53,671 nt of DNA, taken from a virus. Its lineage: Duplodnaviria; Caudoviricetes. Of this stretch, positions 3,904 to 45,596 are shown one piece after another. Both the position numbers and the translations under genes were made by a program. The stretch spans positions 1-53,671 of the IMG/VR virus record IMGVR_UViG_3300045911_000047; one strand, given 5' to 3'. The notes beneath the pieces were generated by a model that was given only the letters and a program-made list of their open reading frames with translations, searched no databases and was not told where the DNA came from. Each line of letters starts with the position of its first letter. Within the stretch, counting starts at the first letter, position 1.

Positions 3904-5141
3904 AAACACTTTATCCACATCAAAGAGAAACAGTAGATTTCACCATCAATCGTTTCAAAACACATAAAGGCGTGTATAACGCATCAGATGTGGGAACAGG
4001 GAAAACGCTCTCAACTATTGAGACATGGAAAGCACTTGGATCACCCCTAACACTAATACTTTGCCCTGCTGTTGTTGTACACAACTTTGCACGGGAGTTT
4101 CGAGAATTTGCTCCCAGTGCAAACATTCAAATAACGACCAAAGACAATCAAACAGGAGATGTTCTGATTACCTCGTACGACATATTCTCAAGACACTACC
4201 AAAAATTCCCACGTGTATCTTTGCTTGTATGTGATGAAGCACATTACCTAAAGAACTATCAAGCAAAACGCACTCAAACGGTGCTAACCTACATAAGACT
4301 TCATGATCCGTATAGGATCTTTCTGTCAGGAACCCCATTTGTAAATTCAGCAGTGGATGCCTTTGTTTGTTTTCGTTCCTGCGATCCAAAGACATTCATA
4401 TCTTTTGAACAATTTGCTAATCGCTACACAAACATTCACACGATTCGTTTGCGTAACCGCATGGTTACTCAGTATAAAGGGATTCGCAATGCAGATTCAT
4501 TAAAGGAACTATACAAATCTTTCCTAATTCGTTTCACTAAGGAAGATGTTATAAAGACCTTGCCACAATTAATGCATTCAACGTGCTACTTTCCTAACAC
4601 TTCAAACTTTAACCGTGCAATAGTGCAACAAGCACTAGATGATTTCCATAATGGAAGGAGAGATTCAACCTCAGTTTCAACAATCAGGTATGAGTCTGGT
4701 CTTGCTAAAGTGAAATATGCCACTGATTATGTAAAAAATATGCTAGAGCAAGGCGAGCCAGTTATCCTATTTGCACATCATAGGGAAGTTATTAAAAAAT
4801 TAGCAGAAGCTTTACATGAGTATGCTCCCTCAGTTATCACAGGTGACACCATAGACCGACAAAACCAAGTAGATCGTTTTCAGAACGAACAAACGAATCT
4901 AATCATCATGAACATTCGAGCTGGCGGTGTTGGGATAAATCTAACCCGTGCGCGTCATGTCATCTTTGCTGAATTTGATTGGACGTATGCCGCCCAAAGT
5001 CAGGCAATCGGACGTGCTTATCGAAACGGTAATTCTAATGCCTATGTACAAGCACATTATTTATTGCTAGAAGATTCATTAGATGAGGTTATGTATAGAG
5101 CCATTAACTTTAAGGAGGAGATGGAAAAAACCCTGATGTAG
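3900..5141 (+). CDS. SNF2-family (SF2) helicase
   Basis: Motifs LYPHQ, DVGTGKT, DEAH, LSGTP, GVGINL and QAIGRAYR. Confidence 0.93.
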   Translation: MKTLYPHQRETVDFTINRFKTHKGVYNASDVGTGKTLSTIETWKALGSPLTLILCPAVVVHNFAREFREFAPSANIQITTKDNQTGDVLITSYDIFSRHYQKFPRVSLLVCDEAHYLKNYQAKRTQTVLTYIRLHDPYRIFLSGTPFVNSAVDAFVCFRSCDPKTFISFEQFANRYTNIHTIRLRNRMVTQYKGIRNADSLKELYKSFLIRFTKEDVIKTLPQLMHSTCYFPNTSNFNRAIVQQALDDFHNGRRDSTSVSTIRYESGLAKVKYATDYVKNMLEQGEPVILFAHHREVIKKLAEALHEYAPSVITGDTIDRQNQVDRFQNEQTNLIIMNIRAGGVGINLTRARHVIFAEFDWTYAAQSQAIGRAYRNGNSNAYVQAHYLLLEDSLDEVMYRAINFKEEMEKTLM

Positions 5142-5161
5142 TATATAAAACCACATCAGGG
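5125..5161 (-). terminator. intrinsic terminator on the antisense strand
   Basis: Minus strand reads CCCUGAUGUGGU-loop-ACUACAUCAGGG-UUUUUU (12-bp stem with one G-U). Confidence 0.65.
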
Positions 5162-5201
5162 AAAATAGTTAATTAGGAAAAACATGACGAACCTAACAAC
5201 T
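5125..5201 (-). ncRNA. predicted ~77-nt antisense RNA covering the primase RBS and start codon
   Basis: Lies between a minus-strand promoter (5236-5208) and a minus-strand terminator (5161-5125). Confidence 0.5.
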
Positions 5202-7544
5202 ACGACAACTATATCAGATTTGTCTCCATATATCAAGTTATTTGTGACAAATCCGTCCGACCCTTGGACATTTCGTTTTGAGCTAGATGGGCAGTCAAAA
5301 ATCCGTACCATATCCTTTAATGCTCTTATATCTTTGATAAATAATAATCGAGGTGTCTCAGTACACACCGTGTTAAACGCTACCAATGGGCTAGGGGCGT
5401 CTGCAAAGGACATCATAGGGGTACGCGTTCTCGCCTGTGATATAGACTCCCCTACGACCCTAAAATCGCTCCTAAGCTACAGATTTGCCCCACATTTAAT
5501 TGTTGAGTCTTCCCCTAGTCGTTACCACTGCTACTGGGCAATCCCCCCACAGGAGCAATCCTCGTTCGTTTATGACAATTTTAAGAAATGGCGTGATTAC
5601 CAGCTTTGCCTAAGCTGTGACCTTAAAGGCGATCCCTCCTTGGCAGTAATAACCCACCAATTACGCTTTCCAAGCATTTATAGGGCTGATAAGGACTTTA
5701 CCCCCGCGATTGTTCATGTAAATGATACTGATACCTTACCCATATTCACAGATGAGGAGATCCGATTAGCCAGAGAATATCAGAAAAAACATCGTTCTAA
5801 GCAAAAAAGACAATTAAAGAAAGGAACCCTAAGGGAGGGGCGTCACAACACAATCTATTTTTCTGTACTCTCAGGAGAATTATCAGCTAGCGAGGCACGA
5901 GCGTTTAATGATAGCCTTGAAAATCCCTTGAAAGAACATGAGGTAGAGCACGCAATTAAGATGGCAGAGAAACTTCGTGCACAAAAATTATCAGAATCTT
6001 TCCTACCCATTGAAGAGCAACTACCTAAAGCTCCATTCTTTGAGACCCTATTTGGATATAGTGGAATTAGTAAAACAAACACCAAGGGAGCAGGAGTGTT
6101 TTCTACCTTAAATGGCAATGCGATTGTATATCAAGACTATAAAACTCAGATAACCTCCTTAATAGGCGATATTGAGCCTATGGTAGCTGAGAGATTCGAG
6201 TCTTGTTTTGTCTCCATCGCTGGTGCCGCGCTTGTATATCATCCAAAGGATATTACTTGGTACAGCATCGAAGATAGATCAGCCATTAGGGCGGTAATCT
6301 TCATGATAGAAGCCTGCATGATTGATTGGGTAAATCATCCAAGATTTAATATGCCATCTGATATCTCAAAGATCCTAAAAGTTCTAAGGAACCAATCCTC
6401 GATATTTGAGATGGCCAATAGGATCCTAAAGAAAATAACCTATAAACCCATATCTCCTACTGTAATTAATAATGCCCTTGTTGGTGTTAAAAATGGAACA
6501 TTTAACCTAGAGACTGGAGAACACCGTGATAGTCTTGAGGAAGACTATATACTGCACAGGGTAGCTATTAATTACACCAAAACTACAAAGTTAGCACATG
6601 GAATAAGGAAGTTCCTAATAGATATGTTCCAATACTCATATGATGCATCGACTGATTCCATCCTAGATCTACTCTTTGAGATGTTTGCCTTATCATTGTC
6701 CAGAAGGCAAGGAGAATATTTCTTCTTCCATGTTGGTGTTGGTGGTAACGGGAAAACAACCCTGTTAGCAATATTGCAAGATCTATTTGGAGACACTTTC
6801 TCCCTAATGCCTGCTCGTTTCTTCTCGGATCGGACTATCTCAGAGGAGTATTTCTTCTCTGGCAAGGCTGGTAAAAGGCTTATTCATTTTGCAGAGGTTG
6901 ATGATAAAAAATTCGATACCCAGAAACTAAAGTTTTTCTCAGAGCGTGTAGTCTCTGCTCGTAGCCAATATGAGGCAAAGCATCAGATCCTAAATGAAGC
7001 TACGATCCATTTTACGGCTAATCGATTTCCTACCTATGATGAGGCAGATTTAGCCTTAGCAAGAAGATTAGTCATATTACCCTATAACAAATGTTATTCT
7101 CAGAATCTCTATGAAAGGTTCCCACCTCATCTAAGGGGAGAACCTAAAGAGCTAAAAGATCTTATACAAATATTTAGAGCAGAAGAGTCAGAGTTCTTAT
7201 ATGAATGCCATTTAGCCTATAAGAGACTTCTTAAAAACGACTTCAAATTATCCTTACAAGAAAAATTGGTAGAAGAGGCTAACAACCTTATCGACGAGCA
7301 AAATGAGATTGTCTCTTATCTAAGGGAGTCTTTGATCTTAATAACCCAATCAGAAGAAGAAGAAGAGCATGGCATGCAATTATCAGATATACAAGAGTTA
7401 CTTATGGCTAGATTCCCAATGGATAATCGTCTTAAAAGGAATAACTTTGTTGGGGCACAGCTTCGGTGTGCTTTTCCCAATATCATAATGAAAAGGGTAA
7501 ACAATAAAAGATTTTGGAACGTAATAAGAAAAGGTTATGAATAA
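5184..7544 (+). CDS. primase-helicase: N-terminal AEP/RepB-like primase, D5/P4-type SF3 helicase, C-terminal putative winged helix
   Basis: CDID and VESSPSRYHCYW primase motifs; GRHN; KNGTFNLETG (D5_N-like); Walker A GVGGNGKTT; FAEVD; TAN; ALARRL. Confidence 0.9.
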   Translation: MTNLTTTTTISDLSPYIKLFVTNPSDPWTFRFELDGQSKIRTISFNALISLINNNRGVSVHTVLNATNGLGASAKDIIGVRVLACDIDSPTTLKSLLSYRFAPHLIVESSPSRYHCYWAIPPQEQSSFVYDNFKKWRDYQLCLSCDLKGDPSLAVITHQLRFPSIYRADKDFTPAIVHVNDTDTLPIFTDEEIRLAREYQKKHRSKQKRQLKKGTLREGRHNTIYFSVLSGELSASEARAFNDSLENPLKEHEVEHAIKMAEKLRAQKLSESFLPIEEQLPKAPFFETLFGYSGISKTNTKGAGVFSTLNGNAIVYQDYKTQITSLIGDIEPMVAERFESCFVSIAGAALVYHPKDITWYSIEDRSAIRAVIFMIEACMIDWVNHPRFNMPSDISKILKVLRNQSSIFEMANRILKKITYKPISPTVINNALVGVKNGTFNLETGEHRDSLEEDYILHRVAINYTKTTKLAHGIRKFLIDMFQYSYDASTDSILDLLFEMFALSLSRRQGEYFFFHVGVGGNGKTTLLAILQDLFGDTFSLMPARFFSDRTISEEYFFSGKAGKRLIHFAEVDDKKFDTQKLKFFSERVVSARSQYEAKHQILNEATIHFTANRFPTYDEADLALARRLVILPYNKCYSQNLYERFPPHLRGEPKELKDLIQIFRAEESEFLYECHLAYKRLLKNDFKLSLQEKLVEEANNLIDEQNEIVSYLRESLILITQSEEEEEHGMQLSDIQELLMARFPMDNRLKRNNFVGAQLRCAFPNIIMKRVNNKRFWNVIRKGYE
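5208..5236 (-). promoter_or_regulatory. antisense sigma70 promoter inside the primase 5' end
   Basis: TTGATA-17 nt-TATAGT with an extended -10 TG. Confidence 0.55.
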
Positions 7545-7839
7545 ACAACAAAAACTAAGGATGCTTCTTATGGAGGCTTTGAATTTGCTAGAAGAGAATC
7601 ATACGGATCTTGTATGTATAGAGATTCTTCATGAGACCTATATTGTTGATTTTCTCGCTAAGACCCCATTAACGGAAATACAACAATTATTAGAAGATAT
7701 CCCTACTGCTCGCAAACGTGCTTGGGTAGCATCTATTGTACGGAGCGCTTTTCCAAACGTGCGTACGTTGAAGGTAAAAACAAAAACATATTGGACATTA
7801 AGAAGGAAAAAAGGAGTAATCTATGGCCAAGAAACATAG
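7537..7839 (+). CDS. small protein paralogous to the primase C-terminal domain (putative DNA binding)
   Basis: LTEIQQLL..RKRAWVASIVRSAFPNV..KVKTKTYW..RKKG aligns with the primase end LSDIQELL..LKRNNFVGAQLRCAFPNI..RVNNKRFW..RKG. Confidence 0.7.
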   Translation: MNKQQKLRMLLMEALNLLEENHTDLVCIEILHETYIVDFLAKTPLTEIQQLLEDIPTARKRAWVASIVRSAFPNVRTLKVKTKTYWTLRRKKGVIYGQET

Positions 7840-8953
7840 TGAATGTGGCGCGTCTGGAGCTAGTAGGTGGCTTACGTGTCTTGGCAGTGTGGCCTTATCT
7901 AGGACTGTTCCAAGACTTCCATCTACAGAACACGCTGATCGCGGCACCAAATTACACAGTGAAGTAGAGCGTTTTGTGAAACAAAAGATTCAGAATCGTA
8001 TTGATGGGTCGATTGTTGATGAGCCTACAGATGAGGAATCAAGGATCCTATGTAATCTAGTATGGGATACGCTTTATGAGCGAGTCTTTGAACATTCAGT
8101 AACAGGAAAGAATTTCTCCTTTGAAACCACACTCACCTTGTTACCTGAGTATGATATGTTTGGTACTGTAGATCTGATTGTAACTGGGATTGACTCTAGA
8201 GGAGAAAGGTACGGTTGGATCATAGATTATAAGTTTGGCTATCATGAGGTACCTATTGAAGATAATGCCCAAATTGCTTTCTATGCTTGTGCACTACAAA
8301 AGTTATGCCAAGCTAAAGGAAAGCCCTTAGCTTATATTCGTACTGCAATTCTGCAGCCTGCAAGCGAAGTTGTTTGGAAAGAAAGTAAACTTACAGAGAA
8401 AAACCTTGAATCTTGGATGAAAAGATTCAGGAAAGTAGCCCATGATATCTATATTAAGAAAGTTACAAAGCTAAAGGCAGGCCCCTATTGTGGGTTCTGT
8501 CCTGCACGAGCAATCTGTCCTGAGTATGCAAAGAACATACAGATAGACAAGATAGATTTTGAATTGCCAAATGTTCAAAGTATTCCAGTTGAGAAACTAA
8601 TTACAATTTGGGAACAATCAGGAAAGATAAAATCTTTCCTAGTAGATGTAGAAGAGTTCCTAAAAGCTGCCTGTTCTGCGGGAGCCCTCCCCGGATATGA
8701 GCTAAAAAGCGCTTCAAGGCGTAGATGGAGAGAAGATGTGCATCCACTTGAAGTTGAGAAAGCTCTAGGCACTATTGCCACTCGTTGTGAGCTATTACCG
8801 ATCACCGTATTAGAGAAGAAACTAGATAAAGCTAAGAAAGAGATACTTCAAGAATTTCTTGAGGTGTACAAAACAGCTCCTAGACTTACTCGAATCGGTG
8901 AAACATCAAACGTAGTTGTGTTTGATGCTATAGAACAAAAATTAACGGAGTAA
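7823..8953 (+). CDS. Cas4-like PD-(D/E)xK exonuclease (DUF2800-like)
   Basis: HS..GAS.ASRW..C, GTKLH, FGTVD, IIDYKFG, Q..FYA, C.FCPARAICP. Confidence 0.88.
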   Translation: MAKKHSECGASGASRWLTCLGSVALSRTVPRLPSTEHADRGTKLHSEVERFVKQKIQNRIDGSIVDEPTDEESRILCNLVWDTLYERVFEHSVTGKNFSFETTLTLLPEYDMFGTVDLIVTGIDSRGERYGWIIDYKFGYHEVPIEDNAQIAFYACALQKLCQAKGKPLAYIRTAILQPASEVVWKESKLTEKNLESWMKRFRKVAHDIYIKKVTKLKAGPYCGFCPARAICPEYAKNIQIDKIDFELPNVQSIPVEKLITIWEQSGKIKSFLVDVEEFLKAACSAGALPGYELKSASRRRWREDVHPLEVEKALGTIATRCELLPITVLEKKLDKAKKEILQEFLEVYKTAPRLTRIGETSNVVVFDAIEQKLTE

Positions 8954-8960
8954 TAATAAA

Positions 8961-9545
8961 ATGGAAGAATATTATAAAGATAAATACGGAAACATTCATG
9001 GGCCTGAAGTAATAACACCTATTCTTAGGTGCATGTACGTAAACTTGGCTAAGCCATCTGAGTACATTAAGGATAAACCTCAATGGGGATGCCTGCTTGT
9101 TTGGGACAAAACGGAGAGTCCAGATTGGGCACCTATTATAGGGGTTGCTAAGTCTGTGATTGAGCAACATCCAAAGAAAAAGAATTTCCAAGCTGATAGT
9201 TTTATAAAGGATGGAGATGAGCGGATCGATGATGAAGGTCGTGTTAAAAAAGATTTTGCTGGGCGTTATTATGTATCTCTTAGTAGCAGCAAGCCTATTG
9301 TGGTTCTTGACCGAAGCCGTAACCTTATGGATCCGGCTTCAATCTTAGGGGGGATGCTGATTCGTGCTCGTGCTCGTGTGATTGCCTCAACCCCAAGTGG
9401 CTCATTCAAGGTGTCCCTCAAACCTACTGCAATACAGCTTGTACAGGATGATGGGGTTCGTTACGGTGGATCTGCAATAGACAGGATGTTTGATGATCTG
9501 CCTATGGAAGGATTAGCGGAGGATGATCTTTTCAAGAATCTCTGA
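8961..9545 (+). CDS. single-stranded DNA-binding protein (DUF2815 / T7 gp2.5-like)
   Basis: ITP..R..Y, IKDGD, IQL..D.G..GG and an acidic C-terminal tail; sits between the nuclease and PolA. Confidence 0.82.
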   Translation: MEEYYKDKYGNIHGPEVITPILRCMYVNLAKPSEYIKDKPQWGCLLVWDKTESPDWAPIIGVAKSVIEQHPKKKNFQADSFIKDGDERIDDEGRVKKDFAGRYYVSLSSSKPIVVLDRSRNLMDPASILGGMLIRARARVIASTPSGSFKVSLKPTAIQLVQDDGVRYGGSAIDRMFDDLPMEGLAEDDLFKNL

Positions 9546-11676: not shown

Positions 11677-12662
11677 TGAAATTTGCAATTGATTACCTAG
11701 GTGGCGCCCGCTATGGAGATATAATCCTAAAAGCTCACCCAAAGGATTTTGGAGCAGGGTTTTTTTCTTTTGTAGATGGTTTTGGGTCTTCCTTGCCTGT
11801 TGCAAGAAAACTTGCATCTACCAATCGCTGTCCCTTCATTCGCTTTCATCTTTGGTGGCGTGATAATCATAACTTTAACGGCTATGAAGATGAGATCATA
11901 AACCAAGCCGAAGACGTAAGAAAGTTAGTTAAAGATTTCCCTAAGATTCAATTTGAAGTTTCCCCAGCTTGTGAGCATCTTTGGCGGAAGGAGAAAGCAG
12001 ACTTAGTTTGTGCTAATGTAGAGAAAATATTTAAAGGGCTTTCTAATGTAGAAGTAATCAATACCCCATATCTTGGCGGCGGTGGACAATTATCAAGCAA
12101 ATATAAAAACGAAGTACATAGAGCTGATAATCAAGTCCCTCGTCAAGGGCGCTTCAATTTCTCTTATGATGGGAGATCCGCTGTGGACTCTCCTGTCTCT
12201 AAAGACAAAAGAAGATGGCAGAAGGCTGAGTGGTTTTTCTTCTGGACATATCAGCTAAATCTAAAGCGAAATGAGAAAGATCGTACCCCAAGAAAAGATA
12301 GAAAAGCTAAGCCTACTAAAGAGCTTATTGAGTCTTTAGCTTACCTAGCTACAGAGAAAGGAAGAACTTTTATAGAAAAAGGATGGTTATTAAAAAGTCA
12401 TGCTGAGCAAATAGGGGATACTCCTACTGCTCGAGAAAATAAAGTATTAGTGCTTGCTCCAATTAAAGCTAGTAAATGTGAGCTTATTACTGAAGATGGC
12501 AAAGTTGTAGCAAGGGCTCCTTATTACGGGTCATTTGAAAAACTACATAGATACTACTTTGAAGTATGGGGCTATAAGCTTCCTAAAAGAGTTAGAGTAG
12601 TAATCAATGGGAAAAGTTATGGGATTGTAAATCCGGGGTTTCGAGAAGGATATTTTAGGTGA
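11676..12662 (+). CDS. hypothetical protein (328 aa)
   Basis: Long coupled ORF with AAGGAG RBS; no family recognised. Confidence 0.8.
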   Translation: MKFAIDYLGGARYGDIILKAHPKDFGAGFFSFVDGFGSSLPVARKLASTNRCPFIRFHLWWRDNHNFNGYEDEIINQAEDVRKLVKDFPKIQFEVSPACEHLWRKEKADLVCANVEKIFKGLSNVEVINTPYLGGGGQLSSKYKNEVHRADNQVPRQGRFNFSYDGRSAVDSPVSKDKRRWQKAEWFFFWTYQLNLKRNEKDRTPRKDRKAKPTKELIESLAYLATEKGRTFIEKGWLLKSHAEQIGDTPTARENKVLVLAPIKASKCELITEDGKVVARAPYYGSFEKLHRYYFEVWGYKLPKRVRVVINGKSYGIVNPGFREGYFR

Positions 12663-13606
12663 ATGGCTTGGATCTATTTTCGGGAATTGGAGGACTCACA
12701 CTTGCTCTTAAAGAATGGGTCACCCCAATCGCCTATTGCGAATCGGATGAGTACGCGCAAAAAGTTCTCCTTAAACAAATGGTTTCAGGAAACTTACCCG
12801 TTGCCCCAATCTGGGATGACGTTAGAACGCTCAGAGAGCTACCCTGCCCAATTGACATCATCTATGGAGGATTTCCATGTCAGGATATCTCGGTTGCAGG
12901 CAAGCGTCTCGGCTTGGAAGGAGAGCGAAGCGGATTATTTTTCGAGGTCGTGCGGTTGGTCAAAGCGTTCAAGCCCACGTTCCTATTCCTTGAAAATGTC
13001 CCAAACATCAGAACAAAAGGATTGGATAGAGTTCTCCAAGAACTTACCTCCGCAGGGTATGATTGTAGATGGTGTATGCTATCCGCTAAGGAAATTGGAG
13101 CGAATCACAAAAGAAATAGATGGTGGCTTTTGGGCTACTCCAAATACTATGGATTGGATGCCCTTAAGGAGCATGGAAGCCTTAAAGAGACAATTCAATA
13201 CTACAAGGAAGGGGAGAACGAAACCTTCAAATCTCAGAGAACAAGTACACCCCCAGTGTTGGCCCAAGAACCTAATGCTTCCAACGCCAGATGCAAGTCC
13301 AAGAGGGCCAACAAAATACTACGACCCAAAACACAAAAGCTACATATACAGGACATTGCAGAGCTTTGTTCGGATGTATCCAACCCCTTGTGCAAGAGAT
13401 TGGAAGGACAATGGTCAGAGCAAGGCAGAATTACAGAGGAACACAAAGACTTTATGCACCCATGCTGGTGGACTGTTGAACCCGACGTGGGTCGAGTGGC
13501 TAATGGGGTACCCTCTAGGGTGGACAGAATAAGAGCATTAGGAAATGCAGTGGTACCATTGCAGGCGAGGACAGCTTTCATGGAACTAATGGGAATAAAA
13601 GGATGA
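12659..13606 (+). CDS. DNA cytosine-5 methyltransferase, alpha polypeptide (motifs I-VIII and X)
   Basis: DLFSGIGG, GGFPCQD.S.AG, ENV, HKRNRW and ALGNAVVP; no motif IX in this frame. Confidence 0.92.
   Translation: MNGLDLFSGIGGLTLALKEWVTPIAYCESDEYAQKVLLKQMVSGNLPVAPIWDDVRTLRELPCPIDIIYGGFPCQDISVAGKRLGLEGERSGLFFEVVRLVKAFKPTFLFLENVPNIRTKGLDRVLQELTSAGYDCRWCMLSAKEIGANHKRNRWWLLGYSKYYGLDALKEHGSLKETIQYYKEGENETFKSQRTSTPPVLAQEPNASNARCKSKRANKILRPKTQKLHIQDIAELCSDVSNPLCKRLEGQWSEQGRITEEHKDFMHPCWWTVEPDVGRVANGVPSRVDRIRALGNAVVPLQARTAFMELMGIKG
12663..13532 (+). CDS. nested +1-frame ORF: C5 methyltransferase beta polypeptide (TRD-like repeats plus motif IX)
   Basis: 870 nt stop-free inside the alpha gene; repeated (W/L/Y)xTP elements; ends LNPTWVEWLMGYPLGWT. 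Confidence 0.75.
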   Translation: MAWIYFRELEDSHLLLKNGSPQSPIANRMSTRKKFSLNKWFQETYPLPQSGMTLERSESYPAQLTSSMEDFHVRISRLQASVSAWKESEADYFSRSCGWSKRSSPRSYSLKMSQTSEQKDWIEFSKNLPPQGMIVDGVCYPLRKLERITKEIDGGFWATPNTMDWMPLRSMEALKRQFNTTRKGRTKPSNLREQVHPQCWPKNLMLPTPDASPRGPTKYYDPKHKSYIYRTLQSFVRMYPTPCARDWKDNGQSKAELQRNTKTLCTHAGGLLNPTWVEWLMGYPLGWTE

Positions 13607-14025
13607 AAAAGAATCTAAAAAGAATCGCTAAAGAGCTCTTTCATTCTCAAGATATAGGCGGGCATAAAGGTCTTTTAGGAAGTCTCGCTCAACTTAGAGG
13701 AGATTGCACAAATATTATAGGGGAAGCTTCAAGAATTTATGGAGATGTTTCAAATCTAAGAGGGGATGTTTCGAATCTCGTAGGAGATGTCTCAGGGATT
13801 TCTGGGGGTATATTCATAAGAGGTTATGTCTCAGGACTTCGAGGAGAAGTCTCTAGACTTCGAGGTTCTGTTTCTTGGCTTACTGGTGATGTCTCAGGGC
13901 TTTCTGGAGAAGCTACAGGCGTTATTGGAGATGCTTCTGGGGTCATTGGAAACCTAGATGACTGTGAGCTTACTAAGGAAGAGAGAGCTAAAGGGGTTCT
14001 ACTAGAAGATTTAATAGGAGATTAA
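13603..14025 (+). CDS. heptapeptide-repeat (xGDVSxL) protein
   Basis: About 11 tandem G-[DE]-[VA]-S-x-[LIV] units. Confidence 0.75.
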   Translation: MKKNLKRIAKELFHSQDIGGHKGLLGSLAQLRGDCTNIIGEASRIYGDVSNLRGDVSNLVGDVSGISGGIFIRGYVSGLRGEVSRLRGSVSWLTGDVSGLSGEATGVIGDASGVIGNLDDCELTKEERAKGVLLEDLIGD

Positions 14026-14026
14026 A

Positions 14027-14128
14027 ATGCAACAGATTATTTATTTAAGATATGCTCCTTCTGGGTGTGCTGTTCCTTTCTGCTACCCGTTCTACTGCCC
14101 ATTTTGCTATCGATTCTATAGAAGCTAG
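14027..14128 (+). CDS. 33-aa Cys/aromatic-rich peptide MQQIIYLRYAPSGCAVPFCYPFYCPFCYRFYRS
   Basis: AGGAG RBS at 14016-14020; read by hand. Confidence 0.5.
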   Translation: MQQIIYLRYAPSGCAVPFCYPFYCPFCYRFYRS

Positions 14129-14143
14129 GGCTAATTAGAAGAT

Positions 14144-15145
14144 TTAATAAGGTGAATGTTTCTTTGCACGTATTAAGATACGGGTATATTTTTCAACACC
14201 ATTTATGAGTGGTCTTCCATGTGGAGTACCCTTATATCTTATACCTATATTTTCTTCGCCTGTATTCATAATTCCAAGTAACTCAAACTGTTCGGGATTG
14301 TATTTATTGATGAAGGTGATAGGTACGCCCATAACGCCATCATAATCTATTGGAATATCTGTGGTCTTAGAGACTTCTATTGCATCATAATTATCATATC
14401 TTGGGTACTTTTCAGGGATATATTTTTTATGAAGTATTAAATAATTCTGATAGCGTGTTTTGTAATCTAGGTTCGTAAACCATCTTACACCATTAACCGA
14501 AACATACTTATTGCCTTCATTATCAGTTCGATAGTTACTAGTCTTTAGTTGATAATCATTTGATATTCTAAATTCTAAAGTGCCGCTACGAATACTTGCA
14601 CCAAGCCACATTTTGTTTTCTTTAATATATTTGAAAACTTCTTTACATATTATTGCGTTTTGATTCCCTAAGATTAAAAACTTTTTCTCATATCTCATTA
14701 GTTGAGCAACATATTCCCTAAATAACGAGAATGGAGGATTAGTTACTACAATATCAGCTTGTTTTAATAACTCTATGCACTCTTCACTTCTAAAATCTCC
14801 ATCACCGTGAAGAAAGGTAGAAACGTTTTTATTATGTCTTAATAGCTCTATAACATCATCTTTAATAGGTTCTAATACTTCATTTATTTCAACCCTCTTT
14901 GGGGTTGAATGATAGTTTGTAACTATAAGTTTCTTTAGTCCTAGTTTGTTAAAATTTAAAGTGAAGTACTTAAAGAAATTACTCTCATACGGATCATCGC
15001 AGTTACAATAAACTATTTTGTCATAAAACTGGTCTTCATAGTGTGCTAACTCTTTCTCAATATCACTTAATTGAGTATAAAACTCATCTTTCTTGGCTTT
15101 CCTTGCATTGACTAATTTTCTATTTGATAGTTTTGTCATAGCCAT
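14144..15145 (-). CDS. N6-adenine DNA methyltransferase, EcoRI-methylase family (orphan)
   Basis: KKDEFYT, VYCNCDDP..SNF, GDFRS.EC, VVTNPPFSLFREY, MGVPITF. Confidence 0.92.
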   Translation of the reverse strand: MAMTKLSNRKLVNARKAKKDEFYTQLSDIEKELAHYEDQFYDKIVYCNCDDPYESNFFKYFTLNFNKLGLKKLIVTNYHSTPKRVEINEVLEPIKDDVIELLRHNKNVSTFLHGDGDFRSEECIELLKQADIVVTNPPFSLFREYVAQLMRYEKKFLILGNQNAIICKEVFKYIKENKMWLGASIRSGTLEFRISNDYQLKTSNYRTDNEGNKYVSVNGVRWFTNLDYKTRYQNYLILHKKYIPEKYPRYDNYDAIEVSKTTDIPIDYDGVMGVPITFINKYNPEQFELLGIMNTGEENIGIRYKGTPHGRPLINGVEKYTRILIRAKKHSPY

Positions 15146-15248
15146 TTTTATATTAAATTATCTTATAAACGGAGATAGCTAAATGCCAGTAGACAATATT
15201 GATGAAGAAAGAGCTAAAGGGGTTCTCCTAGAAGATTTAATAAGATGA
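15146..15248. repeat. chimeric inter-cassette junction made of duplicated flanks
   Basis: 15146-15169 matches 16350-16373 (23/24); about 15180-15206 matches the start of gene 16373; about 15204-15242 matches the end of gene 13603. Confidence 0.85.
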
Positions 15249-16343
15249 TTTCTTAAGAAGCCAAAGCAATTCTTTAACTTTTATATCTCTATTGCGTAAG
15301 TTTCTTGAACCACGATAGGTATTATAATCCTGCTCCATTAGTTCCCATGTTCCGTATTTGGAAAGGATTTTCTTAAATACCTCAATCGGTATAATACCTT
15401 CATCATTGTAAGATATAACTATAAACCTTGCTTGTGTGTCAGCTAAAAGCTGATCCATGGCTTCCTGAGCTTCCTTTCGTTTGTTGTACGCAGATCTATT
15501 CCATTCTTTTGCTATCCCACTTATGCCATCTTGTATCTCTACAGGCTTACCGCTGTTGATAATATTGAGCATAAAGTAATTAGATCCATATGGGTGCTGA
15601 TTATAGGGCGGATCGTAATAGGCTAGATCGAATACAGGTAATTTTGGATCTTTTACTAATTGGTTTATATCTTGTTTATAGATATAAACTGGACATTCGA
15701 AATCAGACAATTCTGGCATCTCAAGCTCAATTTCTTTTTTAATTCGCTCCAAAGCATTTTCGCCACGCCCACCAAAATGTCCAACACCATTTCGTTTGTG
15801 AAATCCCTTGAAGACTCCAGATGTATTAGTGTGAATTGATGCTTTTACTAAGAGTGAAGCAAGGCAAAAATGTCTGTACTCTTTCGGCACTTTTTCAATC
15901 AATCTACGAAGATTATCTATAATTTTTGCGTTAATGTTCGTATAAAAAACTCTTTCTCCCGGCTGAACATTATTATCGTCTTTTGGAGCATAATTTGTCT
16001 CGATAAACCCCGGGGCGTCTGTTCCTTTTAGTTTGTTCTTATTAAGCCAGTCTATGTATTTCTTTAATTGCTCTAGGTTCACTTCAGATTTATTTGCAAG
16101 ATAAGCACGATTCAAGGTCTCTGCATAATCCTTTAGGTCGTTTACATGAAGCTCTTTAGCAAATATCTTTAGAAGCCTAGAAACCGCACCGCTTCCTGCA
16201 AAGCCGTCAAACACAATTAGTTTTTCCTTATTAAGATTTTCCCTGACCCTAAGGAAACCTTTGTATAGAAAGGGAATTAGTTTCCGTTTATTTCCAATAT
16301 AGGTGATTAACTGTGAGGTTAGGTTAATATTATATTTTATCAT
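15237..16343 (-). CDS. N6-adenine DNA methyltransferase, D12/alpha class (orphan)
   Basis: YIGNKRKL, DGFAGSG.VS, YYDPPY, ISYNDEG. Confidence 0.92.
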   Translation of the reverse strand: MIKYNINLTSQLITYIGNKRKLIPFLYKGFLRVRENLNKEKLIVFDGFAGSGAVSRLLKIFAKELHVNDLKDYAETLNRAYLANKSEVNLEQLKKYIDWLNKNKLKGTDAPGFIETNYAPKDDNNVQPGERVFYTNINAKIIDNLRRLIEKVPKEYRHFCLASLLVKASIHTNTSGVFKGFHKRNGVGHFGGRGENALERIKKEIELEMPELSDFECPVYIYKQDINQLVKDPKLPVFDLAYYDPPYNQHPYGSNYFMLNIINSGKPVEIQDGISGIAKEWNRSAYNKRKEAQEAMDQLLADTQARFIVISYNDEGIIPIEVFKKILSKYGTWELMEQDYNTYRGSRNLRNRDIKVKELLWLLKKSSY

Positions 16344-16372
16344 TATTGTTTTTATACTAAATTATCTTATAA

Positions 16373-16630
16373 ATGCCAGTAGACAACATTGATGAATGTG
16401 GGATTTTCGGAATAGGGCGTTGTAAGAGATTCCGCACTGCCTGTAAATGGCACGATGATATGTACGTGATGAAGGAAGAAAAAGGAAATCCTCTATCTAG
16501 GGAAGAAGTAGATAAGAAATTCTATAATGCCATGCTAGCTGCTGCTGGGGATAGTCTTTATTATCAGCTTAAAGCAAAGGTTTATTATGGTATAGTGAGG
16601 GCAGTTGGCTGGTATTTTTGGAGATATTAA
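16373..16630 (+). CDS. DUF1353 / phospholipase A2-like fold protein
   Basis: ACKWHDDMY ... REEVDKKF...ML ... Y..VR.VG. Confidence 0.6.
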   Translation: MPVDNIDECGIFGIGRCKRFRTACKWHDDMYVMKEEKGNPLSREEVDKKFYNAMLAAAGDSLYYQLKAKVYYGIVRAVGWYFWRY

Positions 16631-16632
16631 TT

Positions 16633-16776
16633 ATGCCATTGACTAAGAAAGGACAGAAAATAAGAAAAGCCATGCGTAGGTTCTACGGCCAAAAGAAAGG
16701 CGATCAGGTCTTTTATGCTATGATCAACGAGGGGAAACTCACCAAGGTAGAACAAAAGAGTAAAAAGAAACGGTGA
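16633..16776 (+). CDS. small basic phage protein (MPLTKKGQKIRKAMRRFYGQKKGDQVFYA...)
   Basis: 47-aa ORF read by hand; GGAG upstream; GTGA overlap with the next gene. Confidence 0.7.
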   Translation: MPLTKKGQKIRKAMRRFYGQKKGDQVFYAMINEGKLTKVEQKSKKKR

Positions 16777-17231
16777 ATTATCTCGGTATTGACCCCGGGA
16801 AAGATGGGGCTATAGCAATATTATTACTCCCTAATAATCTTCAAGTATTTAGGTTCTCTAAGGATCTTCCTAGTTTCCTAGACCTATGGCGTACTGTGCA
16901 CCTAGACACCATAGTGTATCAAGAAGATGTGCATGCCATATACCGAGCCAAGGCAAGCTCTACCTTCTCCTTTGGCCGCTCTGTTGGTTTTTGGGATGGT
17001 CTTTTCTATGCCTTACCGCCTAAAGATAGATTCTTTGTAACTCCTACTGTATGGCAAAAATCGGTGCAGATTGCTCAAGCTAGAGTAAAAGGTAGATCTA
17101 GGAAGGAACATAGGCAAAGAATAAAGGCTGCCTCCATGAGGGTAGCGTCTTTGTATGCTGGATTTAAAGTCTCGCACGATGGGGTTGCAGATGCTATAAA
17201 TATATTACGATATGGGTTATTACAAGACTAA
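16773..17231 (+). CDS. RuvC-like Holliday junction resolvase
   Basis: YLGIDPG, QED, FSFG, PTVWQK, ADAINI. Confidence 0.85.
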   Translation: MNYLGIDPGKDGAIAILLLPNNLQVFRFSKDLPSFLDLWRTVHLDTIVYQEDVHAIYRAKASSTFSFGRSVGFWDGLFYALPPKDRFFVTPTVWQKSVQIAQARVKGRSRKEHRQRIKAASMRVASLYAGFKVSHDGVADAINILRYGLLQD

Positions 17232-18000
17232 TAATTGTGGGTGCACCCAGTCAGTGATTGTGGAGGAAACTCCTATTACTCCTGTAGATACAAACACTGT
17301 TGATCTTAGTGTCTCAGGGCAATATAACCATACGCTCAAGGCGGATGTTAAGGTGTCAAATGCCTCTGGGAACTCTTTGACTATAAACTCAGATGGCCTG
17401 TATTGTTCTTTAGATGTATCAGATTGTGAGGCACTCAGGGATTGTATAGATGTTGAAGATACTAACACTGTTGATCTAATTTATCTTGCTGGAGCACTTA
17501 GTGCGAATGTTAAAGTATCTCCCAATTCTTGTAACTCCTTACAGACTCTTAACAATGGACTATATATAAATGCTAATAATCGTTTTGGTGCACAAGAGGC
17601 CTTAGCTGTATATCAAGGAAGCCCTATACAGGTAGGAACTACTCCAATTATTCTTCTTACGACTGGTACTGTTTCAGCTATCCCCGCTCAATGTAGAAGC
17701 ACCTCGGTTGGGTTTGTGGTAACTGGACGGTTAAGGATCCAGAAAAACGTAGGTCTTGATTTTGTGATTGATATTCAGATTCAAAAGAATACCAATGGTT
17801 GGGGGCCACAAAGCACTTTTAGGATAGGGAATAATATGCTTTGGGATGCTGATTATGTATTCACGGATGTGGGAACAGTGTTAGGCCCCGGGCAAGTTCC
17901 AGATACATATCAAATTAGAATGCTAGTTTATTCTAATGGATCCTTTGTTACTGTCACAGGCGGGGAATTAAATTTATTATTATTCTACGGGTCTGTATGA
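17212..18000 (+). CDS. putative virion fibre/decoration protein A
   Basis: Duplicated D.NTVDL...A.VKVS..GN.L....DGLY units; beta-rich C-terminus; paralogue of 18236. Confidence 0.6.
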   Translation: MGYYKTNNCGCTQSVIVEETPITPVDTNTVDLSVSGQYNHTLKADVKVSNASGNSLTINSDGLYCSLDVSDCEALRDCIDVEDTNTVDLIYLAGALSANVKVSPNSCNSLQTLNNGLYINANNRFGAQEALAVYQGSPIQVGTTPIILLTTGTVSAIPAQCRSTSVGFVVTGRLRIQKNVGLDFVIDIQIQKNTNGWGPQSTFRIGNNMLWDADYVFTDVGTVLGPGQVPDTYQIRMLVYSNGSFVTVTGGELNLLLFYGSV

Positions 18001-43757: not shown

Positions 43758-45596
43758 CTATGTACATTGTGAAACTACAGGCCCAGTGCCACAGCTTGGG
43801 CATGTTGCATCCGTTGTAGGCGGTACACAGACACTAACAACGCCACCGACTTTGTCACAGAACGCCGTATTGCCGATATCCACCTTCCATGTAGATGTAA
43901 CCATATCAAACGATACAACAGTCGCAGATACCGTAGTACCATTTCCATAGTACAATGTAACCACCTTGTTAACAGCATCAGCTTTGATCGGATTACTGAG
44001 TACCAGATCAAGTCTAGTATTATCGTTACAATCAACCTCGTAACTAATAACATTTGCTGAGCAGCCAAGTGTATTATCACAGAATAGACTGACGAAGTTA
44101 CAGTTAGGAGGTAACTGTCCTGTATAGATCACCTCAATAGTCTTCCTATCAGAAGATACTGCTACTAAGGTAGTATTCAAATATCCGCCAGTATCTAAGC
44201 CCAATTGAATAGTGTCATCTGGAACTACCAACGAGCTAAGCGGAGCAGATAGTTGAATAAATGCTCTGTTAGATTCTGTTGGATGTAGATAGCTACTTAG
44301 TATCAATGGACATGGACATCCCACAGGCGGTACCTCATTAGTACAAGTCTCAGTTACTGGAGGACATGATTGTTCTGGCAAGAATGTAGCAATAGCGCTC
44401 ACTTTTGGTCTCTCTACCAAGATACCTATCACACCCTCACTTGCCGCAGAAGATACAGAGATCTTAGCAGCAGTAATAAAGAATCCACTTCTCCTTAACG
44501 GATCTGTAGGAGTCTCAGGGTTCACAAACTTCCAATAATCAAAGTAACTAGGCTCAGGGCCAAAAGAAGTGTTACTGCCTAAAGAAGTCTCTGTAGGTAA
44601 TACCATAATCTCCATTGGGGTTTTACCCATCAATAGAACTTCCTCATACTCCGCACTCTCATATGCAGGATTCAATCCAGTATAGGATCCATAGTTCATA
44701 GGTATTCCTTGAACTGTAGGTAGCACCTGAACTAGGTTTCCTTGAGAGTCCTTATTGAATCTTCTAGGCCATAAGAAAGTAACTGGGAAGAACTGCCCCT
44801 GAATTGTGTTAACAAAGTTGTACTTGGTAATTAGGCTATTAGCATAGCCTGAGAACCTAAGATCCTGCCTTAGATTAGGATCATCCCTATACATATGCGA
44901 GATTAATTGCTTTGAAGCAACCAATGCATATACAGGAGAACCTTGGATAACCTCATAAGGTTCAATCTCAGGCATCTTAACCATCCACTCATAGAAGAAC
45001 TCTAGAATGTATGGGTTTAATGCTGAGATTCTTGCATTACCCAAAGGTCTATAAACATAAGGATTATCAGGATTTGGTTTAACGCCCGTAGAATCTACAA
45101 CAAACTTTTTAGCAATCTGAGTTAGGAAGTTAAAGTTAATATTCACTTCCTTCATCCAAGATACTTGCCTATAGAGATTCTCTACGAGTTTAGAGAATAC
45201 CTCTTTGAAATGAGCAGTTGTCTGAATATCTGCAATGCAGAACTCCTCTGAGACAAGCTCCCTTTGCATCAGCTCGCGGATCTTTTGATTAAAACCAAAA
45301 CCGCCAACCTTAGTTATATTATAACCACAACCGGGGCCTTGACATGGATCACAACCTACATTGTTTCTAAGCTTCGCCCATTTATCAAAGCTGGTCTCTA
45401 TAGGAGGCATTTCACCACGGAACTCAAGCTGAATCATAGCGGTTCCTTGACCAGTTTCCCATGGAATGATCTTGGCCGCATCACCAATAAAGGAGGGTGT
45501 TCTGATTGTGTAATCTTTGATTTCTTTTGCGAGTGCAGGAGGAGCTGCGAAAAACGCTCCCCTAACCTCGTCTAAGGAAAGTAAACAATTAGACAT
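43758..45596 (-). CDS. major capsid protein with a ~200-aa Cys-rich C-terminal extension
   Basis: Follows portal and scaffold, has its own leader and a downstream terminator; the call is mostly by synteny. Confidence 0.7.
   Translation of the reverse strand: MSNCLLSLDEVRGAFFAAPPALAKEIKDYTIRTPSFIGDAAKIIPWETGQGTAMIQLEFRGEMPPIETSFDKWAKLRNNVGCDPCQGPGCGYNITKVGGFGFNQKIRELMQRELVSEEFCIADIQTTAHFKEVFSKLVENLYRQVSWMKEVNINFNFLTQIAKKFVVDSTGVKPNPDNPYVYRPLGNARISALNPYILEFFYEWMVKMPEIEPYEVIQGSPVYALVASKQLISHMYRDDPNLRQDLRFSGYANSLITKYNFVNTIQGQFFPVTFLWPRRFNKDSQGNLVQVLPTVQGIPMNYGSYTGLNPAYESAEYEEVLLMGKTPMEIMVLPTETSLGSNTSFGPEPSYFDYWKFVNPETPTDPLRRSGFFITAAKISVSSAASEGVIGILVERPKVSAIATFLPEQSCPPVTETCTNEVPPVGCPCPLILSSYLHPTESNRAFIQLSAPLSSLVVPDDTIQLGLDTGGYLNTTLVAVSSDRKTIEVIYTGQLPPNCNFVSLFCDNTLGCSANVISYEVDCNDNTRLDLVLSNPIKADAVNKVVTLYYGNGTTVSATVVSFDMVTSTWKVDIGNTAFCDKVGGVVSVCVPPTTDATCPSCGTGPVVSQCT

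Follow-up and report, generated by a model that had tools for sequence, protein, structure and literature searches.

Modular shuffling of genes in the hyperplastic regions of T4-type phages, mediated by promoter early stem-loops (PeSLs), was reportedly described by Comeau et al. in 2014. PeSLs are short conserved sequences that bound non-essential open reading frames (ORFs), which recombination inserts, deletes and replaces, and mini-circles with a chimeric joint have been demonstrated experimentally in T4-type phages, as set out in passages of Arbiol et al. (2010, PMC2839356). The mosaicism of phage genomes is attributed, in the relevant parts of De Paepe et al. (2014, PMC3945230), to illegitimate recombination and to relaxed homologous recombination between related phages where homology is short or diverged; phage-encoded annealing proteins are the likely agents, and the borders of the exchanged fragments retain traces. 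Orphan DNA methyltransferases (MTases) of phages shield the phage DNA from specific host endonucleases and several may be present in one genome, according to the passages on such enzymes in Murphy et al. (2014, PMC4190342). Here we analyse a locus in a virus genome of 53,671 nucleotides (nt) (IMG/VR record IMGVR_UViG_3300045911_000047; this whole stretch is called the window below), in which two unrelated orphan adenine MTase genes stand in tandem between two conserved genes, separated by a chimeric fragment of both neighbours. The slot is probably a variable anti-restriction locus that co-occurring phages have reshaped through illegitimate and short-homology recombination.

Of the systems described so far, PeSL-mediated shuffling comes closest: the locus acts like a slot of a hyperplastic region, with conserved borders that allow the exchange of alleles. 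As with the PeSLs in the passages cited, short conserved sequences border the ORFs of a variable region and there is no dedicated recombinase. The PeSLs described there consist of a promoter and a stem-loop and lie at many sites in the genome, whereas the motifs here, L (three exact copies and one near copy) and R (two copies), are locus-specific. Unlike a PeSL, L is coding sequence of a neighbouring gene, the join that stacked the two genes lies outside the conserved motifs, and neither a promoter- or terminator-like signal (with a sigma-70 consensus that is perhaps not the host's) nor a stable fold was found at the locus. The sections of De Paepe et al. drawn on here concern Rad52-like recombinases and temperate coliphages; this phage has an annealing protein of the Gp2.5/Enc34 type, as judged from its genes. 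Like the orphan enzymes in Murphy et al., the MTases here lack a cognate endonuclease and number several per genome, but unlike the examples in those passages two non-homologous adenine MTases stand in tandem in one slot, with a readable scar.

Anatomy of the locus

The slot lies between two plus-strand genes, rep140 (starting at 13603) and p85 (starting at 16373), which are also found in two related IMG/VR contigs, L001 and L002. The initial annotation of this DNA described a repeat-bounded array of antisense MTases; its coordinates and sequence strings are all correct, and Pfam confirms two unrelated, intact N6-adenine MTases antisense between L and R. The features are as follows (aa, amino acids).

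13603..14025, plus strand: rep140, upstream anchor gene, 140 aa, with 7-residue repeats of the GDVSxLx type; 86-88% amino-acid identity in L001 and L002
14003..14016, plus strand: L copy 1, part of the intact rep140 3' end
14018..14135, plus strand: filler of about 118 nt between L and L', which gives rep140 its last two codons and stop
14136..14155, plus strand: L', 20 nt, 19/20 identical to 15229-15248, overlapping the last 4 codons of MTase1
14144..15145, minus strand: MTase1, EcoRI-methylase-family N6-adenine MTase, 333 aa (PF13651, E 1e-126)
15146..15182, plus strand: R copy 1 (15146-15169) and a 13-nt segment with a GGAG ribosome-binding site; the same in L001 and L002
15183..15248, plus strand: scar, a 21-codon chimeric ORF, containing L copy 3 (15229-15242)
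15237..16343, minus strand: MTase2, D12-class N6-adenine MTase, 368 aa (PF02086, E 4e-17)
16350..16373, plus strand: R copy 2, directly abutting the ATG of p85
16373..16630, plus strand: p85, downstream anchor gene, 85 aa, 96% identical in L001 and L002 (phrog_6098, unknown function)
13971-14019 and 15197-15245: repeat pair, 88% identical
14136-14155 and 15229-15248: repeat pair, 95% identical
15131-15169 and 16335-16373: repeat pair, 82% identical
15180-15206 and 16370-16396: repeat pair, 96% identical

The order along the locus is rep140 (with L), filler, L', MTase1, R with the 13 nt, head of p85, tail of rep140 (with L), MTase2, R and p85. This succession, in which the end of one unit meets the start of another, is what an unequal join between two copies of the region leaves behind; in this case the copies carried different methylases.

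The join itself can be read in the spacer between the two MTases. It was said to spell MPVDNIDE followed by ERAKGVLLEDLIR and a stop, an in-frame fusion of the start of p85 to the end of rep140, and so it does: 15183-15206 copies the first 8 codons of p85 (24 nt), and 15207-15248 copies the last 13 codons and the stop (42 nt) of a rep140 allele that ends in LIR. The two parts meet in frame at a 3-nt GAA microhomology that is present in both parental sequences, and the breakpoint lies inside both flanking coding sequences, at codon 8 of p85 and codon -13 of rep140. Since the join falls inside coding sequence at either side, more was moved than a cassette reaching from L to R, and the position of the breakpoint outside both motifs is the main argument against a site-specific mechanism acting on them. 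A breakpoint at GAA with a gene fragment on each side speaks for illegitimate recombination. Between the copies of the repeats there are differences (2-3 mismatches in the 39-nt tail, one in R, one in the head and a 13-nt indel), as is expected of arms derived from different lineages.

The tandem in metagenome assemblies

It is hardly credible that the tandem is an assembly artefact in which two strains, each with one methylase, were co-assembled. Strain mixtures do exist in the sample, with an L002-like variant at the higher depth, but the chimeric junction is unique sequence that must exist in reads, and in three runs (X1, X5 and X7, all from one sample, possibly the source of the window) Logan contigs assembled with k=31 cross it with zero mismatches. 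Such contigs cover all junctions: X1 14882-16614, X5 15158-16438, X7 15091-15303, X1 13953-14614 and X5 13984-14645. The copies share no exact repeat longer than 17 nt, and every 25-mer of the region is unique within the genome; with repeats shorter than k, a de Bruijn assembler could not have created the junction paths. The depth of the MTase2 contig in X1 also matches the backbone (8.9 vs 9.1 and 8.9). Co-assembly, which the initial annotation had itself named as a possible source of the arrangement, is thereby ruled out, and the tandem is physical.

A run from another sample and study, X9, holds zero-mismatch pieces of both MTases at depth 2-3; it has no junction contig and therefore lends the tandem no independent support. 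The sample with the tandem also contains an L002-like phage with a single MTase at about six-fold higher depth (102-134 vs 12-18), recognised by joints from 14017 to 14601 and from 15197 to 16388. The coexistence of the two phages provides an opportunity for co-infection.

Variation of the slot among relatives

L001 and L002 are the only related contigs in the collections searched, and they are fragments estimated to be 57% and 73% complete. Both have the order rep140, one antisense EcoRI-type MTase, R with the 13-nt GGAG segment and p85, and MTase2 was not found in either of these partial contigs. The window at 14611-15206 (5' half of MTase1, R, the 13-nt segment and the head of p85) reproduces this arrangement at 94-95% identity, compared with about 90% for the backbone genes flanking the slot (Fisher p 0.002 and 0.014). 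MTase1 is a mosaic: in a sliding comparison its 5' half (about 14611-15145) is 93-98% identical to L001 and L002 and its 3' half (14144-14610) 30-78%, so that the C-terminal half has been exchanged. The sharp drop in identity at about 14610, with microhomology scars nearby, again argues for illegitimate recombination.

In the relatives the methylase stop lies 22 nt past the stop of rep140 and does not overlap L, and with this spacer the boundary on the L side is not fixed. Of the proposed fixed slot with stacked alternative alleles, what stands is a variable antisense MTase slot between the two anchor genes, filled in tandem here; capture at precise L and R ends does not. Comparison of the orthologous intervals, which had been suggested as a check, likewise finds a single, differing cargo with the same R and no overlap with L.

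Further relatives were sought widely. L001 and L002 were the only contigs returned from IMG/VR by p85 and by DNA patterns of R plus the tail, and a search with p328 gave the same two. Alignment of p85 yielded 0 of 376 stretches in metagenome contigs and 0 of 117 in genome contigs. MTase2 matched one unrelated phage in IMG/VR (53%), the RuvC-like protein five distant loci (27-32%), and blastn of 12600-17300 against INPHARED returned short MTase matches only. Other loci with EcoRI-type MTases (L007-L016) have no flanking genes in common with the window.

Two orphan adenine methyltransferases

MTase1 matches PF13651 over its full length (423 bits, cut-off 26.4; profile 2-345 of 345). Its true start is likely the second ATG, at 15139, since this is the only ATG kept in the relatives. 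MTase2 scores 63 bits against PF02086 (cut-off 22), and its DPPY motif (D244-P-P-Y247) is invariant in the alignment of its homologues (A3). Sequence searches of the PDB gave no match for either protein, and NCBIfam names neither. No endonuclease family is matched among their neighbours (rep140, the other MTase and p85) in Pfam, NCBIfam or PHROG, and both are orphans. The GC content of the adenine MTase genes is 29-36% (29-33% in MTase1) against 38.5% for the genome, a deviation that points to a mosaic origin.

The ends of the two genes are strikingly alike. As had been noted, both take their last codon and stop (TAT TAA) from the minus strand of L, at 14144-14149 and 15237-15242, and both meet L at the identical nucleotide and in the identical frame. 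Both also start within 6 nt of R: the ATG of MTase2 is 6 nt away, while the first ATG of MTase1 abuts R and the second is 6 nt off. In the comparison with homologues that had been called for, both cargo ORFs prove to be trimmed, with no more than about three codons between their ends and the native ones. At its C-terminus MTase2 (LLKKSSY) is neither longer nor shorter than its homologues (ILEKxxA, LLQKK), and L supplies only the last three residues; the MTase2 N-terminus is without some 20 residues of most homologues, yet begins where some natural homologues begin (alignment A3). The C-terminus of MTase1 departs from the family norms by 2-4 residues or fewer. This identical trimming at L is perhaps best put down to selection, the alternative being allele replacement at a Lys-codon microhomology. 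Selection would be expected to act because neither the rep140 stop nor the R leader is dispensable and only one of the three antisense frames through L stops within four codons.

Homologues of MTase2 are widespread in bacteria and number in the thousands (best 81% identity); species-representative genomes alone gave at least 594 matching stretches. Of the 80 bacterial loci retained, 21 have an EcoRI-family endonuclease (PF02963) beside the homologue. From their family relationships both stacked MTases appear to be of types that partner EcoRI-family endonucleases, and they would plausibly be alternative means of countering one class of host restriction enzymes. A common target class would explain why MTase1 and MTase2 are alleles of one slot. 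GAATTC (8 vs 18 expected, z -2.4) and CAATTG (7 vs 14.7) are mildly depleted in the genome, too weakly for targets to be assigned. Together with a cytosine-specific enzyme encoded nearby, the phage is predicted to methylate its own DNA with three enzymes, one C5 and two N6-adenine, of putative specificities.

An arrangement of this kind is seen in an unrelated phage contig of IMG/VR (L004 3256-5066), in which an EcoRI-family endonuclease gene (PF02963, E 9e-38) overlaps the start of a D12-class methylase gene whose product is 53% identical to MTase2; the restriction-modification pair looks complete. The same contig has an apparent inverted duplication of a neighbouring 366-aa gene, at 5101-6201 and 6264-7364.

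Motifs L and R

The 14-mer L occurs exactly at 14003, 14136 and 15229 and R at 15146 and 16350, as first described. One more match to L, with a single mismatch, lies on the minus strand at 44753 (a total of 4 vs 0.13 expected, a number reached in 0 of 100 shuffles); R has only its two sites even with 3 mismatches allowed (0.00 expected). Both are thus confined to the MTase locus, with the near-match at 44753 as the sole exception.

L is not a free-standing site; it is the coding sequence of LEDLI, the conserved C-terminal residues of rep140, whose alignment (A2) ends in ...ERAKGVLLEDLI. After LEDLI the rep140 alleles end in one or two differing codons and a stop (GD, R or E). L' reads in frame from 14135 as LEDLIR and a stop, with synonymous differences, separate from any rep140 body; extension of its homology is not significant upstream (638/5000 shuffles) or downstream (3238/5000). 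R is the 24-nt leader between the divergent methylase and p85, from which both may be expressed; in copy 2, where the 13-nt segment is missing through a deletion between TAAA repeats, the two start codons are 29 nt apart. A promoter scan found 9 promoter-like sites against 12.1 expected and none in the minus strand of R, with a sigma-70 consensus that is perhaps not that of the host, and a terminator scan found none at L.

It had also been claimed that L and R are imperfect inverted repeats of each other. They are indeed complementary at 11 of 14 positions, but 946 of 20000 composition-matched shuffles do equally well, and in the relatives R is substituted at some of the pairing positions, leaving about 9 of 13 paired (compared by hand). 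The junction from R to L (15140-15255) folds no better than its shuffles (z -0.37 to +0.37).

These data bear on the proposal of a dedicated cassette system, in which the L and R ends would excise, capture and stack bare ORFs by means of an unrecognised recombinase or of a hairpin or slippage at the inverted repeat. Its strongest point is that two unrelated ORFs, both without native flanks, share identical boundaries on the L side and on the R side; L' stands free as a 20-nt end, the motifs are 11/14 complementary, and a contig of run X5 has a joint from 14017 to 15154, at the end of L and inside R. We nevertheless think such a system unlikely. The junction between the supposed cassettes carries 24 + 42 nt of coding sequence of the flanking genes, so that neither L nor R was the end of the stacked unit; the MTase of the relatives has a 22-nt spacer in place of the overlap with L; the inverted repeat hardly exceeds chance, pairs less well in the relatives and gives a junction fold with z of about 0; both motifs are found at this locus only; and no recombinase family is matched among the 39 window ORFs scanned with Pfam (the remaining ORFs being small, about 125 aa or less, or nested).

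The initial annotation had called the arrangement integron-like in its logic. Like an integron array, the locus has promoterless ORFs in one orientation, stacked by a fixed upstream region. Unlike integrons, it has no attI and, among the 39 ORFs, no IntI tyrosine recombinase; there is no attC-like hairpin (junction fold z -0.37 and +0.37, 11/14 complementarity near chance), and the spacer carries 24 nt of p85 and 42 nt of rep140. The integron features considered (IntI, an attC fold, and boundaries free of flanking-gene sequence) are all missing (0/3). Integron-like capture at L and R is not supported, given a breakpoint that lies elsewhere, an L that is coding, an unfixed boundary, and the lack of both recombinase and fold.

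A slot that exchanges ORFs precisely, with no dedicated recombinase, is another candidate that we hold to be improbable. Here any methylase ORF would be grafted between R + 6 nt + ATG and a stop borrowed from the antisense last codons of the neighbour; the L/R inverted repeat would guide exact excision and re-insertion, at the L end on one side and within R on the other. The X5 contig, at depth 20.5, bears on this candidate: it leads, directly or indirectly, from 14017 to 15154 without the filler or MTase1, and may represent an empty slot or a third allele or cargo. If exchange were ORF-precise, this contig would be a coexisting empty or re-filled site of the same lineage, alongside the tandem form. 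If nothing separates 14017 and 15154, excision would be precise at L and R and the cassette idea would be favoured.

Origin of the tandem

In the explanation that we prefer, remodelling by illegitimate and short-homology recombination, the interval between the two conserved plus-strand genes would hold orphan MTase genes transcribed antisense to their neighbours, and L and R would be at most short homology arms during the exchange of alleles between related phages. The 8-codon head of p85 from a genome with the EcoRI-type allele would have been joined to the 13-codon tail of rep140 from a genome with the D12-class allele, illegitimately, at the 3-nt GAA microhomology. This may have happened in a single unequal illegitimate crossover between co-infecting genomes. 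Alternatively, a circle (tail, MTase2, R, head) may have been excised illegitimately and have re-entered by homologous recombination through its 40-60-nt arms, a route with an experimental precedent in the PeSL mini-circles of T4-type phages (PMC2839356). Both routes give the same product and are indistinguishable from sequence. In either case both methylases would be retained and the 21-codon chimeric ORF left behind as a scar.

The same processes could account for the detached L' and the 118-nt relic that goes with it, for the exchange of the MTase1 3' half and for the loss of 13 nt from R copy 2. The region from 12.6 to 16.7 kb reads as a patchwork of short-homology and illegitimate events, to judge from the filler relic, a relic of a C5-cytosine MTase gene in a relative, a deletion between CTAATGGG repeats, the 13-nt deletion in R and the divergence after p85. 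Events of this kind are the generally accepted source of mosaicism in phages (PMC3945230). The agents could plausibly be the phage's own exonuclease, annealing protein and resolvase, since all three are encoded and no site-specific recombinase is matched:

7823-8953, plus strand: PD-(D/E)XK exonuclease (recombination module matched by the set phrog_69, phrog_112 and phrog_1770 and the set PF12705 and PF10991)
8961-9545, plus strand: Gp2.5/Enc34-type single-stranded-DNA-binding/annealing protein (same PHROG and Pfam set)
16773-17231: RuvC-like resolvase (PHROG match)

Among the 39 window ORFs scanned, Pfam finds no integrase, transposase or other site-specific recombinase family.

One may also ask whether the tandem began within one genome, as an old duplication of the unit tail-L-MTase-R-head in which one ORF was later replaced by an unrelated methylase, through the duplicated arms, in exchange with another phage. 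The head-to-tail geometry, with periods of 1190-1226 nt, would fit, and the observed junction between the end and the start of a unit has the form expected of a duplication. We find this account rather unlikely: it requires the same illegitimate join and an extra replacement step, it still calls for a donor with MTase2 between the same arms, and the presence of the 13-nt segment in R copy 1, as in the relatives, and not in copy 2 is explained more simply by two parental lineages.

Several observations weigh against recombination between co-occurring phages as the source of the tandem. The variation of the cargo is known from two relatives, a small sample, and the runs that show the junctions all derive from a single sample, from which the window itself may come. 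The 5' half of MTase1 exceeds the backbone in identity by a modest margin, for which purifying selection could account. The two ORFs, though unrelated, reach L at one and the same nucleotide in a single frame, and each starts 6 nt away from R; had they entered independently by illegitimate recombination, these shared boundaries would need selection for maximal trimming or an undocumented allele replacement. As a clean copy of 20 nt, without significant homology on its flanks, L' resembles a defined end rather than a decayed gene tail, and the X5 contig joins the end of L to a point inside R. A donor phage with MTase2 alone in the slot was not found in IMG/VR or among metagenome and genome contigs.

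Surroundings of the locus

The record is a complete virus with direct terminal repeats (a 27-nt exact terminal repeat) and a GC content of 38.5%, and the runs that hold it are hot-spring and microbial-mat metagenomes. It is a lytic-type phage from a hot spring. By Pfam and PHROG profile matches, the left third of the genome is a plus-strand replication and recombination block. Besides the recombination module, the following genes lie around the slot or in this block.

Left-third block, plus strand: SNF2 helicase, D5-type primase-helicase and family A DNA polymerase
12659..13606, plus strand: C5-cytosine DNA MTase, the third MTase of the island (PF00145, E 5e-42; TIGR00675 dcm; phrog_363, E 4e-63)

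The C5-MTase gene has a GC content of 46.5%, against the 38.5% of the genome. It is not in L002, and L001 retains a 69-nt relic of its 3' end (window 13439-13507 vs L001 1496-1564, 90% identity). The last 27 codons of the gene (81 nt) are deleted in L001 between CTAATGGG direct repeats (L001 1557-1575 vs window 13510-13606), which is another microhomology deletion in the island.

A second open frame, 289 codons long and on the same strand (window 12663-13532, plus), covers nearly the whole of the C5-MTase frame (315 aa); its own match is to another PHROG with the annotation DNA methyltransferase (phrog_1008, E 8e-18), and it carries WATP/PTP and LNPTWVEWLMGYPLGWT motifs. A similar pair exists in Acinetobacter phage vB_AbaM_ABMM1 (L130 597-1511), where the annotated MTase coding sequence of 304 aa is overlapped by an open frame of 298 codons (601-1497) that aligns over its full length with the alternative frame of the window (29% identity, E 1e-21). 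The main frames of the two phages are 37% identical; their middle is poorly conserved, and the alternative frame is conserved there. A literature search retrieved no paper that pairs overlapping or alternative frames with cytosine methyltransferases. A conserved overprinted gene is one possible explanation of the alternative frame, a product that depends on frameshifting another.

In all four runs, depth bumps and loose ends occur at 13466-13513 and 15583-15896, and a contig of 2330 nt from X9 matches the window at 13466-13513 only. These show that other organisms of the mats carry C5-MTase and D12-MTase genes with stretches at least 85% identical to those of the phage, and they are possible donors or recipients.

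rep140 has no Pfam or PHROG match, and in NCBIfam it reaches only a sub-threshold score with the RiPP peptide TigB (32.5 bits vs a cut-off of 70). Its family includes 23 more distant metagenome loci with multicopy paralogues; as these have no MTase1, MTase2 or p85 nearby, they are uninformative about the slot. Members of the family (L001 1047-1481; L017-L039) share a conserved C-terminal tail, ...C.LT.EER....E.L, and often occur as 2-5 tandem paralogues in phage-like metagenome contigs (five copies in L018). p85 has only 2 clusters in a set of 5.8 billion proteins, and the genomes diverge again right after it (loose end at 16628).

The filler, bounded by the 14-nt duplication of L, contains a stretch of 40-44 nt (14075-14119) that is about 80% identical to L002 5207-5370 (blastn, E 1e-5 to 5e-4). 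The matching part of L002 is the repeat region of a 501-aa DUF6745 gene, which lies upstream of rep140 in that contig, and we read the filler as the relic of an earlier rearrangement. Within it is a 33-codon ORF (14027-14128, plus) with a strong GGAG ribosome-binding site. The encoded peptide is rich in Cys and aromatic residues, with 7 Cys/Tyr/Phe-rich repeats of the CxxF/CYxF type, and may be accidental.

Significance for phage anti-restriction

We regard the locus as ordinary phage mosaicism with an unusually clear scar, and as no new class of mobile element. It is a legible record of a phage accumulating counter-defence genes: two non-homologous methylases, alternative fillings of one slot, were stacked by one sloppy join, and the mat still contains a phage of the parental type. 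Each gene is now flanked by direct repeats (about 40-60 nt, 88-96% identical), from which segregation back to either single allele is predicted. The locus could thus act, at the level of the population, as a reversible switch between both anti-restriction genes and either one of them.

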